From the NCBI GenBank assembly GCA_944393685.1, contig CALYAW010000001.1:36023-100022 (forward strand): a stretch of 64,000 bases of DNA, in the 5' to 3' direction. Positions within the stretch are counted from its first letter, which is position 1. The number at the start of each line of letters is the position of its first letter. The translations under genes and the position numbers were made by a program. This DNA is from an uncultured Alphaproteobacteria bacterium (lineage in GTDB: Bacteria; Pseudomonadota; Alphaproteobacteria; RF32; CAG-239). Shown in pieces: positions 6,116 to 26,356 of the stretch. Under the pieces are notes generated by a model. The model worked only from the letters and a program-made list of their open reading frames with translations, was not told where the DNA came from and made no database searches.

Positions 6116-6150
6116 GAAAAGCTCTCTATTAAAGAGAGCTTTTCTATATT
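6116..6150 (+). terminator. Rho-independent terminator-like hairpin after the nitroreductase gene
   Basis: GAAAAGCTCTCT-ATTAA-AGAGAGCTTTTC perfect 12-bp stem followed by T-rich TATATT. Confidence 0.55.
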
Positions 6151-6423
6151 GGCGGAGTAGTAAATCTCAACGGTATTAAGCATACTAAAGCTTTACATTT
6201 CTCAAGCCAAATAACAGGGAAACTACAGGGAAATTTGCCTTGTTTCTACCCAATATACCATCTTAAAATCCTTGAATTTATTACCTTATAAAAACATCGC
6301 ACCTAAAATTATCAGGGAATTTAAAATTAAATACAGGGAAAATTTACAATTAGGAATTGCTTTTTGCAAAGTACAATAGTAACAATATATATTATTGATT
6401 ATTGAAAGAATTAGGAAACAAAA

Positions 6424-11734: not shown

Positions 11735-12739
11735 TTATTCAATTTCATTCATCTCTTCAAATAGATACGGAGCTACAGAGATTTCCTTTTGTTTTTCAAC
11801 TTTTCTTTTAAATGCCTCTATATTTTTACTAATCTCCATAAGAGCTGAAACCCTACCAATCTGTAAAATAAGGATATTTCTTCCCTCTTCAGTTAACCAC
11901 CTATGAAACTGAGCAATTCTTTTTCCATCTTTTTTTATATTCTTCTTATTAAGTTCTTCTTTTATATATCCGTGCTCTATTGGCTCATACACATATTTAT
12001 TTATAAAGTTTCCATAATACATCGGCCTTTTACGAGAAATAGTGATTCCGTTATTATAAAGACGATCTAGTTCAGCAAAAAAAGCATCCGGAAATGTTTT
12101 AATCCATTTTTGTAAACCTTCTTCAATATATTTTGCTAACAATATCCTTAATGCATCGTGTTTTCTGTCATATTGATAACCCGTTGCTTCATCAATTAAT
12201 GCATCTATACCAACTTGAGCAAAAGCCATTAATAGAATTTCAGATTTCTCTGCAAGTTTCTTTTGTGAAGCTGTTAATTGGTTGTCTCTACGTGCATTGA
12301 GATAAACTTCACACATTTTAGGTAATATACTGGCCAAATAACCTGTTTTTTCTATAGACCCATCAATATATGTGATTGGGGTGGCCTTCTCAATAACTTC
12401 TGAAGTTATATATTTTTCTAAGTTTTTTGCGGCCAAAAATGGAGGTATTTTTGTTCCTTCAATTTCGAGCCTTGAATTCATACCTTTTCTAGTTCGATCA
12501 AAAGCATTAAATATAGATGTTGCGGTTAAAACTCTCCGACCATCATCTAATACAGCACAATCTATTTCCACATCGCCAATAGGAAGCACTCCAGTATATA
12601 GAGCCTTAGGAAAATTGCTTTCATTAGTAGCACTTTTTTGCCATCTTGATTGCGCCGCTTTTATTGCTATCTCTCTACGTTGTTCTGATGATAATTTTTT
12701 TGCTCTAACCTTACCACCTTTAATTTGATTTACATTCAT
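11735..12739 (-). CDS. Hypothetical protein, phage P63C-domain-like, with basic N-terminal DNA-binding-like helix
   Basis: 334 aa. N-terminus MNVNQIKGGKVRAKKLSSEQRREIAIKAAQSRW is a motif I recall from phage P63C-domain and related proteins. 31 bp downstream of gajA on the same strand. Confidence 0.4.
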   Translation of the reverse strand: MNVNQIKGGKVRAKKLSSEQRREIAIKAAQSRWQKSATNESNFPKALYTGVLPIGDVEIDCAVLDDGRRVLTATSIFNAFDRTRKGMNSRLEIEGTKIPPFLAAKNLEKYITSEVIEKATPITYIDGSIEKTGYLASILPKMCEVYLNARRDNQLTASQKKLAEKSEILLMAFAQVGIDALIDEATGYQYDRKHDALRILLAKYIEEGLQKWIKTFPDAFFAELDRLYNNGITISRKRPMYYGNFINKYVYEPIEHGYIKEELNKKNIKKDGKRIAQFHRWLTEEGRNILILQIGRVSALMEISKNIEAFKRKVEKQKEISVAPYLFEEMNEIE

Positions 12740-15068: not shown

Positions 15069-15389
15069 TTATTTCAAAACTTCAACAAATTTGGATAAGG
15101 TATGAATTTGTTCATCCGAAAGGTGCCTAATATTTGCAATCAACAAGGACTCTTCAGCTGCACGTTTGGGACTAATGTTGTCATCAACATTATCATCTAA
15201 AATCATGCTTAATCGGCAATTAAGAGCTTTTGCAATATCGACCAAGGTCTCAAAATGTGGATAATTGACACCTCTTTCTATGTTTGATATAGCCTCAACA
15301 GAAACATCGCAACGCTCAGCTAAAACTTCTTGTGTCATTTTAGCCGCTTGTCTAATAGCCTTAATTCTCAACCCGATCTTTTTCTTCAT
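15069..15389 (-). CDS. XRE (Cro/C1)-family HTH transcriptional regulator
   Basis: 106 aa. LRIKAIRQAAKMTQEVLAERCDVSVEAISNIERGVNYPHFETLVDIAKAL is a canonical XRE HTH. Divergent from the 4-gene operon. Confidence 0.85.
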   Translation of the reverse strand: MKKKIGLRIKAIRQAAKMTQEVLAERCDVSVEAISNIERGVNYPHFETLVDIAKALNCRLSMILDDNVDDNISPKRAAEESLLIANIRHLSDEQIHTLSKFVEVLK

Positions 15390-15406
15390 GTTTTACCCCA
15401 CAATTA

Positions 15407-15484
15407 GAAGTTTAACTTAAAGTTTTTGCTTGAAAACGGAGTAAAACTTGTATAATTTTTATGTAATAGAAGTTTTACTTAATA
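15407..15484 (+). promoter_or_regulatory. Divergent promoter region with direct-repeat candidate operators
   Basis: TTGAAA (15430-35) ... TATAAT (15451-56). Flanked by direct repeats AGAAGTTTAACTTAA (15407-21) and AGAAGTTTTACTTAA (15469-83). Confidence 0.45.
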
Positions 15485-15509
15485 AAATAAAAATCTATAG
15501 GCTAACATA

Positions 15510-16406
15510 ATGAAAAATCGAGCAATGTCTGAAAAATTTTTTTATGAGTTTAAAAGCGGAAAGTATCAAAACATCCTACAAACTGTAAAGCAAGACGATG
15601 ATTTAATTATGTGCCTGCGAGGTGATTATATTACCATATATTATAAGAGTATGCGTATATTGGAAATATCCGAAAATGGCGAATATGATGTTGATAAAAA
15701 CTACGGCATTATTCCTCCAAACGATGATACAAATTGGATAGAATATTTCAAAAATGCAAAATTTGCCTTGAGTTCCTACAATAAAACTAAACAAATTAAT
15801 AAACTTGAAAAGGAAGTTCAACAAGCGATTGTTAAAGAAAACAACACAAGCTCTATCTGCAATGAAACCGATTACTTTATTATTGATATAGAATATACTC
15901 AGCCGGAATTTGATGGTAGATTTGATGCATTAGCTGTCTATTGGCCTAAAAACAAACGCAAAAACGGCCATGACCTACAACTAGCGTTTATTGAAGTTAA
16001 AGCCGGCAATAATGCTATTGGAGGGACTTCCGGTATTGTAAAGCATTATGAATCGGTTATTGAATTTTTGAATAATCTTACCAAGAATAATGAAAAAGAA
16101 CAATTTATCCAAGATATTGAAAAAGTGATAGCTCAACAGCGAGACTTGGGATTATGGAATATTCCTCATAATAAACACGAAATAACTTTGTCTCGCTCAA
16201 CCAAGCCTCAATTAATTTTTATTCTTGCCAACTATAATCAAAACTCAACAGTATTACGCAATGAATTAAATCTTTTTCCCAGTATTAACAAGAAATATAG
16301 TAATGAGCTTCCTTTTGAATTGAAATTTGCTACGTCATCTTTTGTCGGATATGGCTTATATAGTAACGGAATGATTAATATAGATAATATATTAGATAAA
16401 AAATAA
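15510..16406 (+). CDS. PD-(D/E)xK nuclease-like protein (first gene of novel 4-gene operon)
   Basis: 298 aa. Core strands FDGRFDALAVYW ... LAFIEVKAG give D...ExK spacing typical of the restriction-endonuclease-like fold. No housekeeping match recognised. Confidence 0.5.
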   Translation: MKNRAMSEKFFYEFKSGKYQNILQTVKQDDDLIMCLRGDYITIYYKSMRILEISENGEYDVDKNYGIIPPNDDTNWIEYFKNAKFALSSYNKTKQINKLEKEVQQAIVKENNTSSICNETDYFIIDIEYTQPEFDGRFDALAVYWPKNKRKNGHDLQLAFIEVKAGNNAIGGTSGIVKHYESVIEFLNNLTKNNEKEQFIQDIEKVIAQQRDLGLWNIPHNKHEITLSRSTKPQLIFILANYNQNSTVLRNELNLFPSINKKYSNELPFELKFATSSFVGYGLYSNGMINIDNILDKK

Positions 16407-16415
16407 GGGGCTAAA

Positions 16416-17612
16416 ATGAAGGCATGCATTAGAAGAGGAGCAAACCAAATCGGAGGATCTGCTGTTGAAATTATAGCAGATAATCAACAAAGGTTGATTA
16501 TAGATATTGGGTTACCTCTTGATGCAGAGGAAAATACTCAAGACCTTCTTCCTCAAATTGACGGTCTTAAACATAGGACACCTGATTTGCTAGGTATCTT
16601 AATATCTCATCCCCATCAAGATCATTATGCCTTAGGATTACATATTGATAAAGACATCCCTATTTTTATGAGCCATGCGACATCAAAAATAATGGAAGTT
16701 ACCACACAACATAACATTCCTGACGCATTTGTCTTCAACAATATCAATATCTTTGAAAATCAAAAAAGTTTTAAAATCGGGAACTTCAACATTACACCCT
16801 ATTTGGTTGATCATTCGGCCTATGATGCTTATGCTTTTTTAATTGAAGCTGACGGCAAACGTTTGTTTTACAGCGGAGATTTTCGTGCACATGGTCGAAA
16901 ATCCAAATTATTTGAATCATTCATCCAAAATCCTCCGCAACATATAGATACATTATTAATGGAAGGCTCTTGTTTAGGACGAGATAAATCCGAGCAATAC
17001 GAAAGTGAAACCGAGTTGGAAGAAAAGTTTTTTGATATATTTAAGCAAACAAGGGGTATAAGCCTTATTCAAACATCTTCGCAAAACATTGATAGAATTG
17101 TTACCATCTACCGAGCATGCAAAGAAAGTAACCGCACATTGGTAATGTCTGGGTATACAGGACATATTCTGCAATGTTTAGAAAATTCACATTTACCAAA
17201 TTTTACATGGCCAAATGTTAAAAAAATGAGCCAATCAGTTACAAGAAAACATGAAATATCTGTTGAAATGATAGAAAAGTCTCCCGATAAATACACAATC
17301 CTTTTGGGCGGCCAGATATTTAATATGCTAAAAAACAGTTTCCTTTTAAATAATGAAGCTTCATTTATTTATTCCATGTGGGATGGTTATAAAGAACTAT
17401 ATAAAGAGCGACTGGAACTAATTCAAAATAAAGGGGTTAATATGTTTGATATTCACACCTCAGGACATGCAGATATTCCAAGTCTTCAAAAATTTGCATC
17501 AGCTCTTAATCCTCATCAATTGGTTCCGATTCATACTTTTCTCCCACAAGAGTTCAAAAAGCTATTCAATAATGTAGTTATTTATGAAGATAATCAAATA
17601 TTTACAATATAA
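16416..17612 (+). CDS. Metallo-beta-lactamase-fold nuclease of beta-CASP type (RNase J/CPSF73/SNM1-like)
   Basis: 398 aa. HxHxDH motif ISHPHQDHYALG. Downstream DHSAYDAYAF and IDTLLMEGSCLG resemble the DxLIxESTY region. Long C-terminal domain after the MBL core consistent with a beta-CASP insertion. 10 bp after the previous gene. Confidence 0.6.
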   Translation: MKACIRRGANQIGGSAVEIIADNQQRLIIDIGLPLDAEENTQDLLPQIDGLKHRTPDLLGILISHPHQDHYALGLHIDKDIPIFMSHATSKIMEVTTQHNIPDAFVFNNINIFENQKSFKIGNFNITPYLVDHSAYDAYAFLIEADGKRLFYSGDFRAHGRKSKLFESFIQNPPQHIDTLLMEGSCLGRDKSEQYESETELEEKFFDIFKQTRGISLIQTSSQNIDRIVTIYRACKESNRTLVMSGYTGHILQCLENSHLPNFTWPNVKKMSQSVTRKHEISVEMIEKSPDKYTILLGGQIFNMLKNSFLLNNEASFIYSMWDGYKELYKERLELIQNKGVNMFDIHTSGHADIPSLQKFASALNPHQLVPIHTFLPQEFKKLFNNVVIYEDNQIFTI

Positions 17613-17623
17613 GGACAAAGTAA

Positions 17624-18322
17624 ATGGATTTAAAAAACAACTTAGAACTTATAATCGGTGGTATTGCATCTACTGTCGCCATGGCCGCAATTATTTTTAG
17701 ATTTGTCTTTTTTGAAATAGATTTAAGCACAACAGCTGATTTTATAAAAGACTTTTCAGAAATTATTGTATCGGTTTTAGTCTTTTTTGTTGCCGTTAAA
17801 AGTATCTTAAGCCAGAGTAAAAAAAAGGAAACTTTCAAAAAAGTTTTTGATGAAGAGCTTCAAGCATGGATGCAACGCAATCGCCCACTGATTTCTAAAG
17901 AGAACCGTTTTCAGGTTGAAAATGCTGACAGATATTTTATTTTGTCGGATCATGATCACATTTTTGATATTGGAGAAGATTTTCAAGACGACAAAAAGTA
18001 TCAAAAAGGTGTGTTTGTTCAACTTCCCCACACATTTACAACTAATGATAAAATTATTTTCTTTATGAACAAGAGTACATTTATGGCACGAGCAAAGGCT
18101 AAAGACAGCGATGTAGATGCAGAAATAGATAAACTCATATATCGAACTGCAAATTGTATTAGTGCCAAATTTGGTAAAGAATTATTTGAGGCAAGTGGAG
18201 ATCCCAAACATCATCAAATCCATGTCAAAATAAAGACCCGAGATCTTGACACGCCAGAAGATGCCAGAACAATAATAAAAATGCTTGATTATGTAATGAT
18301 TTTATACTTAGCCGCAGCTTAA
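17624..18322 (+). CDS. Two-TM membrane protein with C-terminal soluble domain (third gene of operon)
   Basis: 232 aa. TM1 IIGGIASTVAMAAIIFRFVFF, TM2 IIVSVLVFFVAVKSIL, then about 160 aa charged soluble region. 12 bp after MBL gene. Confidence 0.45.
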   Translation: MDLKNNLELIIGGIASTVAMAAIIFRFVFFEIDLSTTADFIKDFSEIIVSVLVFFVAVKSILSQSKKKETFKKVFDEELQAWMQRNRPLISKENRFQVENADRYFILSDHDHIFDIGEDFQDDKKYQKGVFVQLPHTFTTNDKIIFFMNKSTFMARAKAKDSDVDAEIDKLIYRTANCISAKFGKELFEASGDPKHHQIHVKIKTRDLDTPEDARTIIKMLDYVMILYLAAA

Positions 18323-18351
18323 ATTTTAACTCAAACCGAAAGGAAAAAGAC

Positions 18352-18654
18352 ATGAGAAATTTTAAAATAGAAAGAACCGGAGTCGTTCGAGATGAAAGAG
18401 GAATGAAAGTTGGTACGGTTCAAAGAAATACCCTAAGAGATGCTAGAGGATCCCGCCTCGCAGAAATATCTGGAGATAGAATCAAGGATAGTCGAGGTTT
18501 AACTTTAGGAGAAATTAGCGGCTCAAGAATAAAAACGAGACGAGGAAATACAGTTATGGAAATTGATAAAATTCCTCTTGATTACGAAATGCCAGTTTCT
18601 CCGGCAATGGCCGCAGCAATCATGCATTTTTTTATCAAACCGATTTTTGATTAA
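18352..18654 (+). CDS. Small protein composed of four tandem about 16-aa repeats (fourth gene of operon)
   Basis: 100 aa. Repeats RDERGMKVGTVQRNTL / RDARGSRLAEISGDRI / KDSRGLTLGEISGSRI / KTRRGNTVMEIDKIPL. RBS AAAGGAAAAAG before ATG. Confidence 0.45.
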   Translation: MRNFKIERTGVVRDERGMKVGTVQRNTLRDARGSRLAEISGDRIKDSRGLTLGEISGSRIKTRRGNTVMEIDKIPLDYEMPVSPAMAAAIMHFFIKPIFD

Positions 18655-18677
18655 AATTTCAGCTTAGTTATAATTGA

Positions 18678-18708
18678 AAATGCCGAGTACTTACTCGGCA
18701 TTTTTTGT
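18678..18708 (+). terminator. Strong rho-independent terminator closing the 4-gene operon
   Basis: AATGCCGAGTA-CT-TACTCGGCATT followed by TTTTTGTT, immediately after the 18654 stop. Confidence 0.75.
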
Positions 18709-18820: not shown

Positions 18821-19186
18821 ATGGCATTTGAAAAATTTATTATCCAAACCAAAAAAAACTTCCCAACTGCGTCAATTTCAACGCTCGGAAGACTTAGTCT
18901 AAATGAGGCTGCAATCGCTGCTTTTGGCTTACAAACAAAAAACTTTGCAGAACTTTTTTACGATTCGGAAAAGGCGCTTATTGGCATAAAATTTTTGAAT
19001 TCAGAGACAGAAAACAGTCTCAAAGTCCAAAGACGCGACAACTCTGGTATGTTTTTATCGGTTAAAAGCTTCTTCAAAGCCTATCAGATTGACTACTCAA
19101 CTACATATTCTTGTGAAGTATCACAAGATGAAAAGGATAAAGACTTTTTGATAATAAACTTAAACACCAAGACAGAAAGGAGATAG
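18821..19186 (+). CDS. Hypothetical protein
   Basis: 121 aa, strong RBS AAGGAGG 7 nt before ATG. AT-rich promoter-like region (TTGACA at 18763) upstream. No recognisable domain. Confidence 0.4.
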   Translation: MAFEKFIIQTKKNFPTASISTLGRLSLNEAAIAAFGLQTKNFAELFYDSEKALIGIKFLNSETENSLKVQRRDNSGMFLSVKSFFKAYQIDYSTTYSCEVSQDEKDKDFLIINLNTKTERR

Positions 19187-25389: not shown

Positions 25390-25457
25390 TAGCCTAATTT
25401 ACATTAAAAATTTTTCAGAATATCATTCATTATGGCAAAAAATTTGTGGATAAGAAA

Positions 25458-26090
25458 ATGAGTGAGATTCAAAAACAATACTATCAACAACTTCAAAACC
25501 AGCTAAAGATTATGTGCAGTGCAACTATTCACGCACTAATTGATACCTATATGCTTATGTTTCCTGAGGCATACAAACAGGAAAACAAAAATACCTTTAT
25601 GTTTCGATACACTTTTTATGCTTTTCAGCAAAGAGCTATGATTTCTGTTAGAAAGTTAATTGAACCTTCAAGTAAAAACAAAATCACAATTGAATCTATT
25701 GTTAAATTAGCTACGAAACCAGATTTTTCACTTTTGTCTGAAAAAGAGAAAGCTGCATTAAAAGCTGATTACGATGAGCTATTCAACTCAGAAGAAACAA
25801 AAAGGATAAAAGAATTTCGAGATGCTTTGTGTCATAATCTTTTAGATGGAGATAAAGCAATGTATTATTATAATGATTTTATGTTCATTGTTAGTGGATC
25901 AATTCATATTTTAGAACAACTATACCTGATTGTTCTATCATCGCTCCCAACTTTTTTTGTTGAAGCCCGTAATATTGCAGAATATCTCGCATCTAATTAT
26001 TGGAAAGCTCTCGATATAGCCGCAAAAAATTCTAACAACAATCACGATATAAATGCTAAATTACAGAAGCTTCTAGATGGTGAATTTTAA
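25458..26090 (+). CDS. Hypothetical protein with candidate HEPN Rx4H motif (possible Abi-like protein)
   Basis: About 210 aa. Track start 25446 is GTG, ATG at 25458. Motif FRDALCHN (R-x4-H). Last gene of the island before tRNA-Ser. Confidence 0.35.
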   Translation: MSEIQKQYYQQLQNQLKIMCSATIHALIDTYMLMFPEAYKQENKNTFMFRYTFYAFQQRAMISVRKLIEPSSKNKITIESIVKLATKPDFSLLSEKEKAALKADYDELFNSEETKRIKEFRDALCHNLLDGDKAMYYYNDFMFIVSGSIHILEQLYLIVLSSLPTFFVEARNIAEYLASNYWKALDIAAKNSNNNHDINAKLQKLLDGEF

Positions 26091-26264: not shown

Positions 26265-26356
26265 TGGCGGATGAGGAGGGATTTGAACCCCCGATACGAG
26301 TCACCCCGTATACACGATTTCGAGTCGCGCGCATTCAGCCTCTCTGCCACTCATCC
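26265..26356 (-). tRNA. tRNA-Ser (anticodon CGA), long variable arm, encoded CCA
   Basis: Reverse complement GGATGAGTGGCAGAGAGGCTGAATGCGCGCGACTCGAAATCGTG...GGGGGTTCAAATCCCTCCTCATCCGCCA. 7-bp acceptor stem, anticodon loop CT-CGA-AA, long extra arm, T-arm GGTTCAAATCC. Confidence 0.85.

Follow-up and report, generated by a model that had tools for sequence, protein, structure and literature searches.

A predicted PD-(D/E)xK and beta-CASP nuclease pair as a candidate defence module in a satellite-like island of an uncultured alphaproteobacterium

Characterised members of the beta-CASP class of metallo-beta-lactamase (MBL)-fold proteins, which includes RNase J, CPSF73 and SNM1/Artemis, are 5'->3' exonucleases or endonucleases. 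The only immune effector of this class in prokaryotes retrieved from open-access text is Cas14 of type VII CRISPR, which cleaves RNA (PMC13069675), and no system joining a beta-CASP protein to a nuclease of the PD-(D/E)xK superfamily was found described in open-access full text. Such a combination is present in a 64,000-nucleotide stretch of DNA (hereafter the window) from an uncultured alphaproteobacterium (assembly GCA_944393685.1, contig CALYAW010000001.1, positions 36,023 to 100,022), where four genes, g1 to g4, form an operon (15510-18654) facing the gene of an XRE-family repressor (Table 1). The conserved core of this locus is a predicted endonuclease-exonuclease pair, g1 plus g2 (hereafter the g1-MBL pair), and the best-supported reading of its contexts is that the pair acts as an autonomous, horizontally mobile anti-phage or anti-competitor defence module, to which we assign a probability of roughly 0.5. 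In contrast to type VII CRISPR-Cas, there is no CRISPR array, Cas5/Cas7 or guide RNA in the locus, and whereas Cas14 is guided by RNA, the partner of g2 is a PD-(D/E)xK protein.

Table 1. Features of the g1-g4 locus, with positions in the window
Feature	Position	Strand	Description
XRE-family HTH repressor gene	15069-15389	-	106 aa; divergent from operon
Operator/promoter region, predicted	15405-15482	.	repeats and TATAAT between XRE gene and g1
g1	15510-16406	+	298 aa; predicted PD-(D/E)xK-fold nuclease of a family without database model
g2	16416-17612	+	398 aa; predicted beta-CASP metallo-beta-lactamase-fold nuclease
g3	17624-18322	+	232 aa; two transmembrane segments and alpha/beta cytoplasmic domain; lineage-restricted accessory
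g4	18352-18654	+	100 aa; putative beta-flower repeat protein with C-terminal hydrophobic helix; accessory
Intrinsic terminator at operon end	18676-18707	+	13-bp stem (hairpin 18676-18705) and U-run

By its modelled fold and its D...(D/E)xK motif, the product of g1 belongs to the PD-(D/E)xK superfamily, and it is predicted to be a metal-dependent nuclease. Its AlphaFold model (mean predicted local distance difference test score, pLDDT, 91.6) has a restriction-endonuclease-like alpha/beta fold, to which the closest folds are DNA endonucleases, and its catalytic core, RFD139-ALAV plus IE162-V-K164, is invariant in 31 homologues with identity down to 32%, in agreement with the D...ExK core noticed in a preliminary description of the locus. 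D126 and E128 are likewise invariant in this alignment, as are R37, Y44-Y45, E100, Q104-Q105, N111, H179 and Q209. Of the two nuclease assignments in that description, profile searches support that of g2, while g1 matched no profile and owes its assignment to the model and the motif instead; it is unmatched in Pfam, NCBIfam, PHROGs, PADLOC and PDB sequences. Compared with the nearest known PD-(D/E)xK nucleases (NucS/EndoMS, XisH, type II restriction endonucleases and the defence nucleases HamA, Can2 and Shedu SduA), g1 has no sequence-level tie to any family modelled in Pfam, NCBIfam, PADLOC or PDB, carries a conserved N-terminal domain peculiar to it (R37, Y44-Y45) together with the extra invariant residues, and is partnered by a beta-CASP protein, not by a methyltransferase, helicase or CARF sensor. 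In an exhaustive profile search, the family comprises 2031 representatives (clusters at 50% identity) at E<=1e-3, of which 598 reach E<=1e-30; a word-indexed search recovered just 40 clusters. The proteins are kept full-length down to about 30% identity. Membership of g1 in the REase-ARP/PDDEXK_13 family was rejected, as no relationship was found by hhalign and hmmsearch; a protein of that family adjoins g1 in some loci lacking the MBL gene, and nothing was found for 'REase-ARP' in the open-access literature. A phage origin of g1 was also rejected, since single-sequence tblastn against 50,697 phage records retrieved nothing and a fold search of BFVD gave no viral match at E<=1e-3. The same tblastn search found no match in plasmids; on two plasmids, an MBL gene is followed by genes for proteins of about 320 aa that the g1 profile weakly recognises.

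The sequence of g2 identifies it as a complete beta-CASP MBL-fold protein, whose nuclease activity is predicted. In Pfam it matches Lactamase_B_2 (5e-13) and RMMBL (24.8 bits, above the cut-off of 21.6), and it shares with RNase J, CPSF73 and SNM1/Artemis all four MBL motifs, the beta-CASP motifs A-C and the RMMBL C-terminal region. MBL motifs 1-4 (D30, H65xH67xD69H70, H133 and D155) are present in 58-60 of 60 homologues, with the HxHxDH motif in all 60, and motifs A-C (E183, H351 and H373) are invariant throughout the same set, so that the beta-CASP assignment made from the motifs alone holds. The closest solved structure is 2az4, the uncharacterised EF2904 (5e-18). The best named relative of g2 is RNase J, and this, together with the RMMBL match and the precedent of the RNA-cleaving Cas14 (PMC13069675), speaks for an RNA-directed enzyme, in which g1 would be an RNA endonuclease or specificity subunit and the outcome abortive infection by RNA decay, or RNA processing. 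However, g2 scores 63 bits with the RNase J model TIGR00649, whose cut-off is 400 (and 50 against 820 with RnjA), which excludes it from the RNase J family; with about 550 aa, RNase J is longer by some 150 aa and has an extra C-terminal region that g2 lacks, and the closest folds to g1 cut DNA, so that we regard an RNA target as quite improbable. A housekeeping RNase J paralogue, which the preliminary description had named as an example of what would refute its own proposal, is likewise rejected on account of the low score, the short protein and the patchy distribution: unlike RNase J, g2 does not occupy a core-genome position but occurs in mobile settings beside g1-type nucleases.

The g1 family was detected at 197 loci among 185,579 species representatives (one genome per species), that is in about 0.1% of species, which nevertheless belong to more than 15 phyla and include Alphaproteobacteria, Bacillota, Bacteroidota, Melainabacteria, Planctomycetota, Desulfobacterota and one archaeon (Bathyarchaeia). 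For a survey of linkage, open reading frames (ORFs) were called in 94 loci (referred to below by L numbers) and searched with profiles, and the g1 proteins were grouped at 85% identity into 72 lineages; most loci come from metagenome-assembled genomes (MAGs) and the gene calls are crude. A g2-type MBL gene lies within 150 bp of g1 on the same strand in the order g1-MBL in 28 lineages and in the order MBL-g1 in 18, is fused to g1 in one, is separated from it by one gene in five, and is further away in three; in eight lineages both flanks are sequenced and there is no MBL gene, and nine could not be scored. Thus, the two genes are adjacent or fused in 47 of the 63 scorable lineages and no more than 1.5 kb apart in 52. 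Fusion proteins occur in both orders, namely P0041 (702 aa, g1 followed by MBL/RMMBL, present on two contigs) and L091 (763 aa, MBL followed by g1), and in P0099 the g1 part is joined to a DEDD exonuclease of the RNase_T family, free-standing genes of which flank the g1-MBL pair in L001, L019 and L098. The linkage and the fusions, together with the RNase_T fusion and the flanking RNase_T genes, identify the endonuclease-exonuclease pair as the conserved core. These RNase_T/DEDD genes encode about 165 aa, are often on the opposite strand and occur in up to three copies (L001 6935-7432 and 11082-12079; L019; L098 4217-4714); their products may serve as a second exonuclease, a regulator or an immunity factor. 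The g1 proteins of L001 and L002 are identical; in L002 (7001-13311), g1 precedes an MBL stub of 71 aa and then Phage_capsid_2 and Bbp19-type genes. This locus could be a prophage variant that has been rearranged, or the contig could be a metagenomic chimera.

A mobile and patchy distribution, in which the neighbours at many loci are unremarkable, would also be expected of a selfish or addiction cassette, or of a coincidental hitch-hiker, that brings no benefit to the host. But hundreds of diverged sequences all retain the catalytic residues, the pairing is kept in both gene orders and in fusions, and the proteins are conserved in full length to about 30% identity. This points to purifying selection on a joint activity and makes such a cassette very improbable.

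The two remaining genes of the operon do not follow the pair. The preliminary description had proposed the four genes as one module and suggested its synteny as a check; across genomes g1 and g2 co-occur strongly, but g3 and g4 accompany them in only three of about 73 lineages (the window, L007/8 and L098/99), all closely related gut Alphaproteobacteria. Moreover, in sister elements the slot after the MBL gene is filled otherwise, with a WYL/WCX regulator gene in L001, or is empty, as in L006 after a deletion that truncated the MBL gene and removed a 121-aa gene. A fixed four-gene system as the general unit was therefore rejected, and the unit is g1 plus g2. Between the window and L098, identity amounts to 42% for g1, 69% for the MBL protein, 82% for g3 and 69% for g4, which marks g1 as the fastest-evolving component.

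As described before, g3 has two hydrophobic segments (residues 6-36 and 38-66) and g4 four repeats of 16 aa. The alpha/beta domain of g3 is well predicted, a fold search gave no informative match, and the family comprises 8 clusters in 5.8 billion proteins. Relatives of g3 recur with unrelated nucleases: in L097 with a 230-aa protein that has its own D...ELK motif (no relationship of this protein to g1 was found, and it was rejected as a homologue) and an MBL protein 36% identical to g2, and in L095, on a mobilisable element, as a gene for a g3-like protein with two transmembrane segments beside a Cys-repeat peptide and a PDDEXK_4 nuclease. This suggests that g3 is a nuclease-associated membrane adaptor. 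The Cys-repeat peptide, encoded at L095 7741-7998 between the g3-like and PDDEXK_4 genes, is an 85-aa protein without family match that contains three CxxCGSxAxGSGCxHSPxxKH repeats; it was considered as a beta-flower protein and rejected, being a Cys-rich triple repeat with no relationship to that fold. The product of g4 is a putative beta-flower protein, as its score of 36.7 bits with Pfam Bflower_2 (PF21785) narrowly misses the cut-off of 38 and a precomputed PF21785 match exists for the orthologues in L007 and L098. Its repeats are of an RDxRG type and are followed by a hydrophobic C-terminal tail PAMAAAIMHFFIKPIF, and no DNA-level tandem repeat was found in the gene. These features fit the published description of the fold, with repeated beta-hairpins, a [DNEQ]xxG tip and an optional C-terminal hydrophobic helix; the fold was described in 2023 as of unknown function, with a Tubby-like membrane association proposed (PMC10584680).

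With regard to the operon itself, all ORFs lie where the preliminary description had placed them, while the gaps between g1 and g2, g2 and g3, and g3 and g4 are 9, 11 and 29 nt, each one less than it had given. A purine-rich, Shine-Dalgarno-like ribosome-binding site precedes each of g2, g3 and g4. The near-perfect terminator it had noticed is also supported, since the hairpin folds with -22 kcal/mol (z = -6.5) and none of 200 shuffled sequences folds as well; a consensus terminator scanner missed it because an A/U extension of the stem uses up the T-run. The next gene starts past the terminator at 18821 and has its own TTGACA box upstream. The spacer between the XRE gene and g1 is 120 bp and contains two direct 16-nt copies of TAGAAGTTTWACTTAA (15405-15420 and 15467-15482), 62 bp apart, and between them a third, inverted copy (15440-15453) that overlaps the TATAAT at 15451-15456. 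Across the window, the degenerate motif occurs about as often as by chance (4 matches, with 3.5 expected). The motif with a spacing of 63 bp is, however, kept upstream of g1 in L007 and L001, where g1 is 51-58% identical, which is stronger than the chance statistics and indicates that the operators are probably real. We infer that the XRE protein binds these repeats and that the predicted promoter is active.

The XRE protein matches Pfam HTH_3 (6e-16), which together with the conserved operators agrees with the divergent repressor and repeat-flanked promoter first proposed; it aligns full-length with the PADLOC capH model (6.5e-10) and, below the cut-off, with NCBIfam RstR (1e-12). An orthologue of 106 aa takes the same position in L001 and L006-L008. 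Repressors of this kind are known from operons controlled by BrxR/CapW-type WYL and CapH-type XRE proteins, where a toxic effector operon likewise has a small HTH repressor gene next to it or in divergent orientation. Unlike CapH-controlled operons, the window locus has no CapP-type protease partner: a CapP metallopeptidase gene was looked for in and beside the operon and none was found, so that XRE does not form a CapH/CapP pair. Nor is XRE a constant part of the module, as it was taken to be at first, because it accompanies g1 in about 7 of 72 lineages, and elsewhere there is a WYL regulator, HTH_11 or no regulator at all. The most frequent neighbour of the pair is WYL/WCX (12 lineages), followed by XRE and HTH_11, and one of these three types is found within about three genes in about 20 of the 72 lineages. 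This swapping between lineages means that the regulators are not part of the conserved core. Of the WYL regulators of the BrxR family, about half are found alongside defence systems (PMC9122601).

Four observations together argue for the defence module: the pair is patchily distributed, it occurs in mobile and defence-island contexts, its regulators are of defence type, and g1 evolves more rapidly than its partners. In the window, the neighbourhood of a restriction-modification (R-M) pair, Gabija, GmrSD and phage-type genes reported earlier is supported by Pfam matches, including one to terminase. In L010 the pair adjoins GmrSD genes, a WYL gene and a region of conjugative-transposon type; in L009 its neighbours are GmrSD-HNH, a methylase of EcoRI type and a double AAA+ protein resembling IetA. 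DUF2779 is also among the defence-type neighbours, with GmrSD and WYL. In L098/L099, the four genes are inserted like a cassette between holA and clpX. A g1 without MBL gene directly follows HsdR (type I) or an N6 methyltransferase, or stands beside Nmad3, an HD domain protein or T5orf172. In a sample of 150 immediate flanking genes drawn from all lineages, the only recurrent families are HTH_3/XRE (6), AAA+ (4), WCX/WYL (3), methyltransferases, RNase_T and Metallophos, and the PADLOC matches include type I and type III restriction endonucleases, IetA, PDC-S08, S10, S48 and WYL. The double AAA+ (Cdc48-like) protein, of about 690 aa and matching PADLOC IetA with a best E value of 4e-74 among the sampled neighbours, adjoins or lies near the pair in five lineages (L009 10248-12299; L047 1373-3367; L048; L084; L089), and one of these loci has the order WYL-AAA-MBL-g1, which suggests an extended variant of the system.

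The mechanism that we propose for such a defence module is drawn from the enzymology of both superfamilies. The g1 and g2 proteins would most likely act as a single complex, which in the window would be kept silent by the divergent XRE through the three operator repeats over the promoter, and elsewhere by a repressor supplied by whichever local context the pair occupies. Phage infection, helper induction or DNA damage may trigger de-repression, after which g1 would cut endonucleolytically and its beta-CASP partner would process the ends, so that the invading (or all) nucleic acid would be destroyed. The optional g3, with two transmembrane segments, and g4, with its Tubby-like beta-flower, would probably tether or gate the nucleases at the membrane. 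Complex formation, the substrate (DNA or RNA), the trigger and the defence phenotype are all presumed here. Of the regulated nuclease defence with a membrane component that had been suggested at first, the setting in a defence-rich island is upheld, but the membrane part is optional, the pair has a backbone position in the island, and the function is deduced from context.

Several observations weigh against defence as the function. No named system gives a homology anchor in PADLOC-DB v2.0.0 or the open-access literature, and the operon is without a self/non-self determinant such as a methyltransferase. The 150 neighbours fall into 136 Pfam families, mostly singletons, so any enrichment in defence genes is to be read qualitatively, and some pairs stand among ordinary metabolic genes (L003-5, L058 and L060). 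In the family of elements to which the island in the window belongs, the pair is fixed backbone, not variable cargo. Furthermore, WYL regulators and beta-CASP or NucS-like nucleases are also hallmarks of DNA-damage repair. An accessory repair function, in which a NucS-like endonuclease and an SNM1/Artemis-like exonuclease induced through WYL or XRE would process damaged DNA or stalled forks, is consistent with these analogies and with the WYL, RNase_T and AAA+ neighbours, but its scattered occurrence in so small a fraction of species is hard to reconcile with a repair role, which we consider rather improbable.

The pair in the window belongs to a low-GC island of about 20 kb (6100-26360) beside tRNA-Ser(cga). 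Its left arm carries GmrSD (GmrSD_N), a Gabija-like pair of the GajA/GajB type (an OLD-type ATPase/TOPRIM protein and a UvrD helicase), a P63C protein and an EcoO109I-like restriction endonuclease with a C5 methyltransferase, as identified with Pfam. Its right arm consists of the XRE gene and the divergent g1-g4, a 121-aa gene, a ParB-N6 methyltransferase, DUF5681, a 163-aa gene, TerL, DUF2924 and a large serine recombinase. Genes for capsid, portal or tail proteins were not found in the island. Further alphaproteobacterial MAGs, and one Melainabacteria MAG (L028), have the same right-arm backbone with XRE and the g1-MBL pair, while the left arm is swapped, with DISARM-like genes in L006-8 and BREX-like genes (BrxA/DUF2326/HNH) in L001. 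Judged by its genes, the island looks like an undescribed phage-satellite-like element. With the P4-like satellites, the phage-inducible chromosomal islands (PICI) and the PICI-like elements (PLE) it shares integration at the side of a tRNA gene, a recombinase, a master repressor, packaging genes without capsid or tail genes, and a defence hotspot. It differs from them in its backbone of large serine recombinase plus DUF2924, TerL, DUF5681 and ParB-methyltransferase, and its type comes from MAGs of gut Alphaproteobacteria and Melainabacteria. The island suggests that gut bacteria known from metagenomes only carry a family of satellites not yet described.

Given the backbone position, a role centred on the element, such as interference with a helper phage, competes with plain host defence. 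The pair would then be a repressor-controlled early operon that cuts helper-phage or host DNA during induction of the island and so favours packaging of the island; nuclease-mediated interference with a helper is known from NixI of the Vibrio PLE. XRE and the g1-MBL pair indeed keep the same position by the ParB-methyltransferase, DUF5681, TerL, DUF2924 and serine recombinase genes, with g1 51-66% identical and the Melainabacteria MAG included, the defence cargo of the opposite arm differs from element to element, and the operators are conserved. However, most g1-MBL lineages lie outside such elements, in unrelated chromosomal, plasmid or integrative and conjugative element contexts, and L098 holds the cassette without any element. 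The function of the module must therefore be autonomous, and a role confined to the satellite seems unlikely to us; it overlaps with defence in outcome.

In PADLOC-DB v2.0.0, g2, g3 and g4 have no match at E<=0.1 and g1 only a chance-level one to Cmr5 (0.016), as had been anticipated, while XRE matches generic HTH models besides capH. On these negatives and those from the open-access literature, an already named defence system was rejected. Both the components and the underlying scheme of a nuclease operon under repression within a defence island are familiar, and the pair is thus a good candidate for experiments and not a categorical novelty. A more far-reaching interpretation, which we offer tentatively and with some doubt, is that the pair is an unnamed, widespread innate immune system of bacteria and archaea that works as one enzyme and includes the first beta-CASP effector outside type VII, with g3 and g4 recruited to it in gut Alphaproteobacteria and with a new satellite backbone shuttling Gabija, DISARM and R-M systems. 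If so, a new two-component nuclease system would join the defence repertoire, a sizeable protein family currently without a database model would be defined, and innate immunity would be added to the roles of the beta-CASP enzymes, beyond the housekeeping of RNA and DNA and one rare CRISPR type. With its fused and split forms, both gene orders and the alternative beta-CASP or DEDD partners, the pair is a tractable case for studying how endonucleases and exonucleases are assembled into pairs. For the beta-flower fold, the g3/g4 add-on would offer a first functional handle, as part of a membrane-proximal nuclease complex.

A few further features of the island were observed. The P63C-domain protein (334 aa, 11735-12739) is encoded between the Gabija-like and R-M pairs, and Bro-N-domain proteins take the equivalent position in sister elements (L001, L006-8), so these may be conserved genes of the element rather than cargo. 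A search for attachment (att) sites between the island ends gave no exact repeat of at least 11 nt. The left junction (6150-6170) has TTGGCGGAG, which resembles the 3' end of tRNA-Ser, TGGCGGATGAGG, at the right junction (26265-26290), and this similarity may represent a short att core. Finally, between the serine recombinase gene and tRNA-Ser there is an ORF for 214 aa (25446-26090) with a weak match to HEPN_AbiU2 (E 1.3e-3, below the cut-off), which may be a further small defence gene at the edge of the island.

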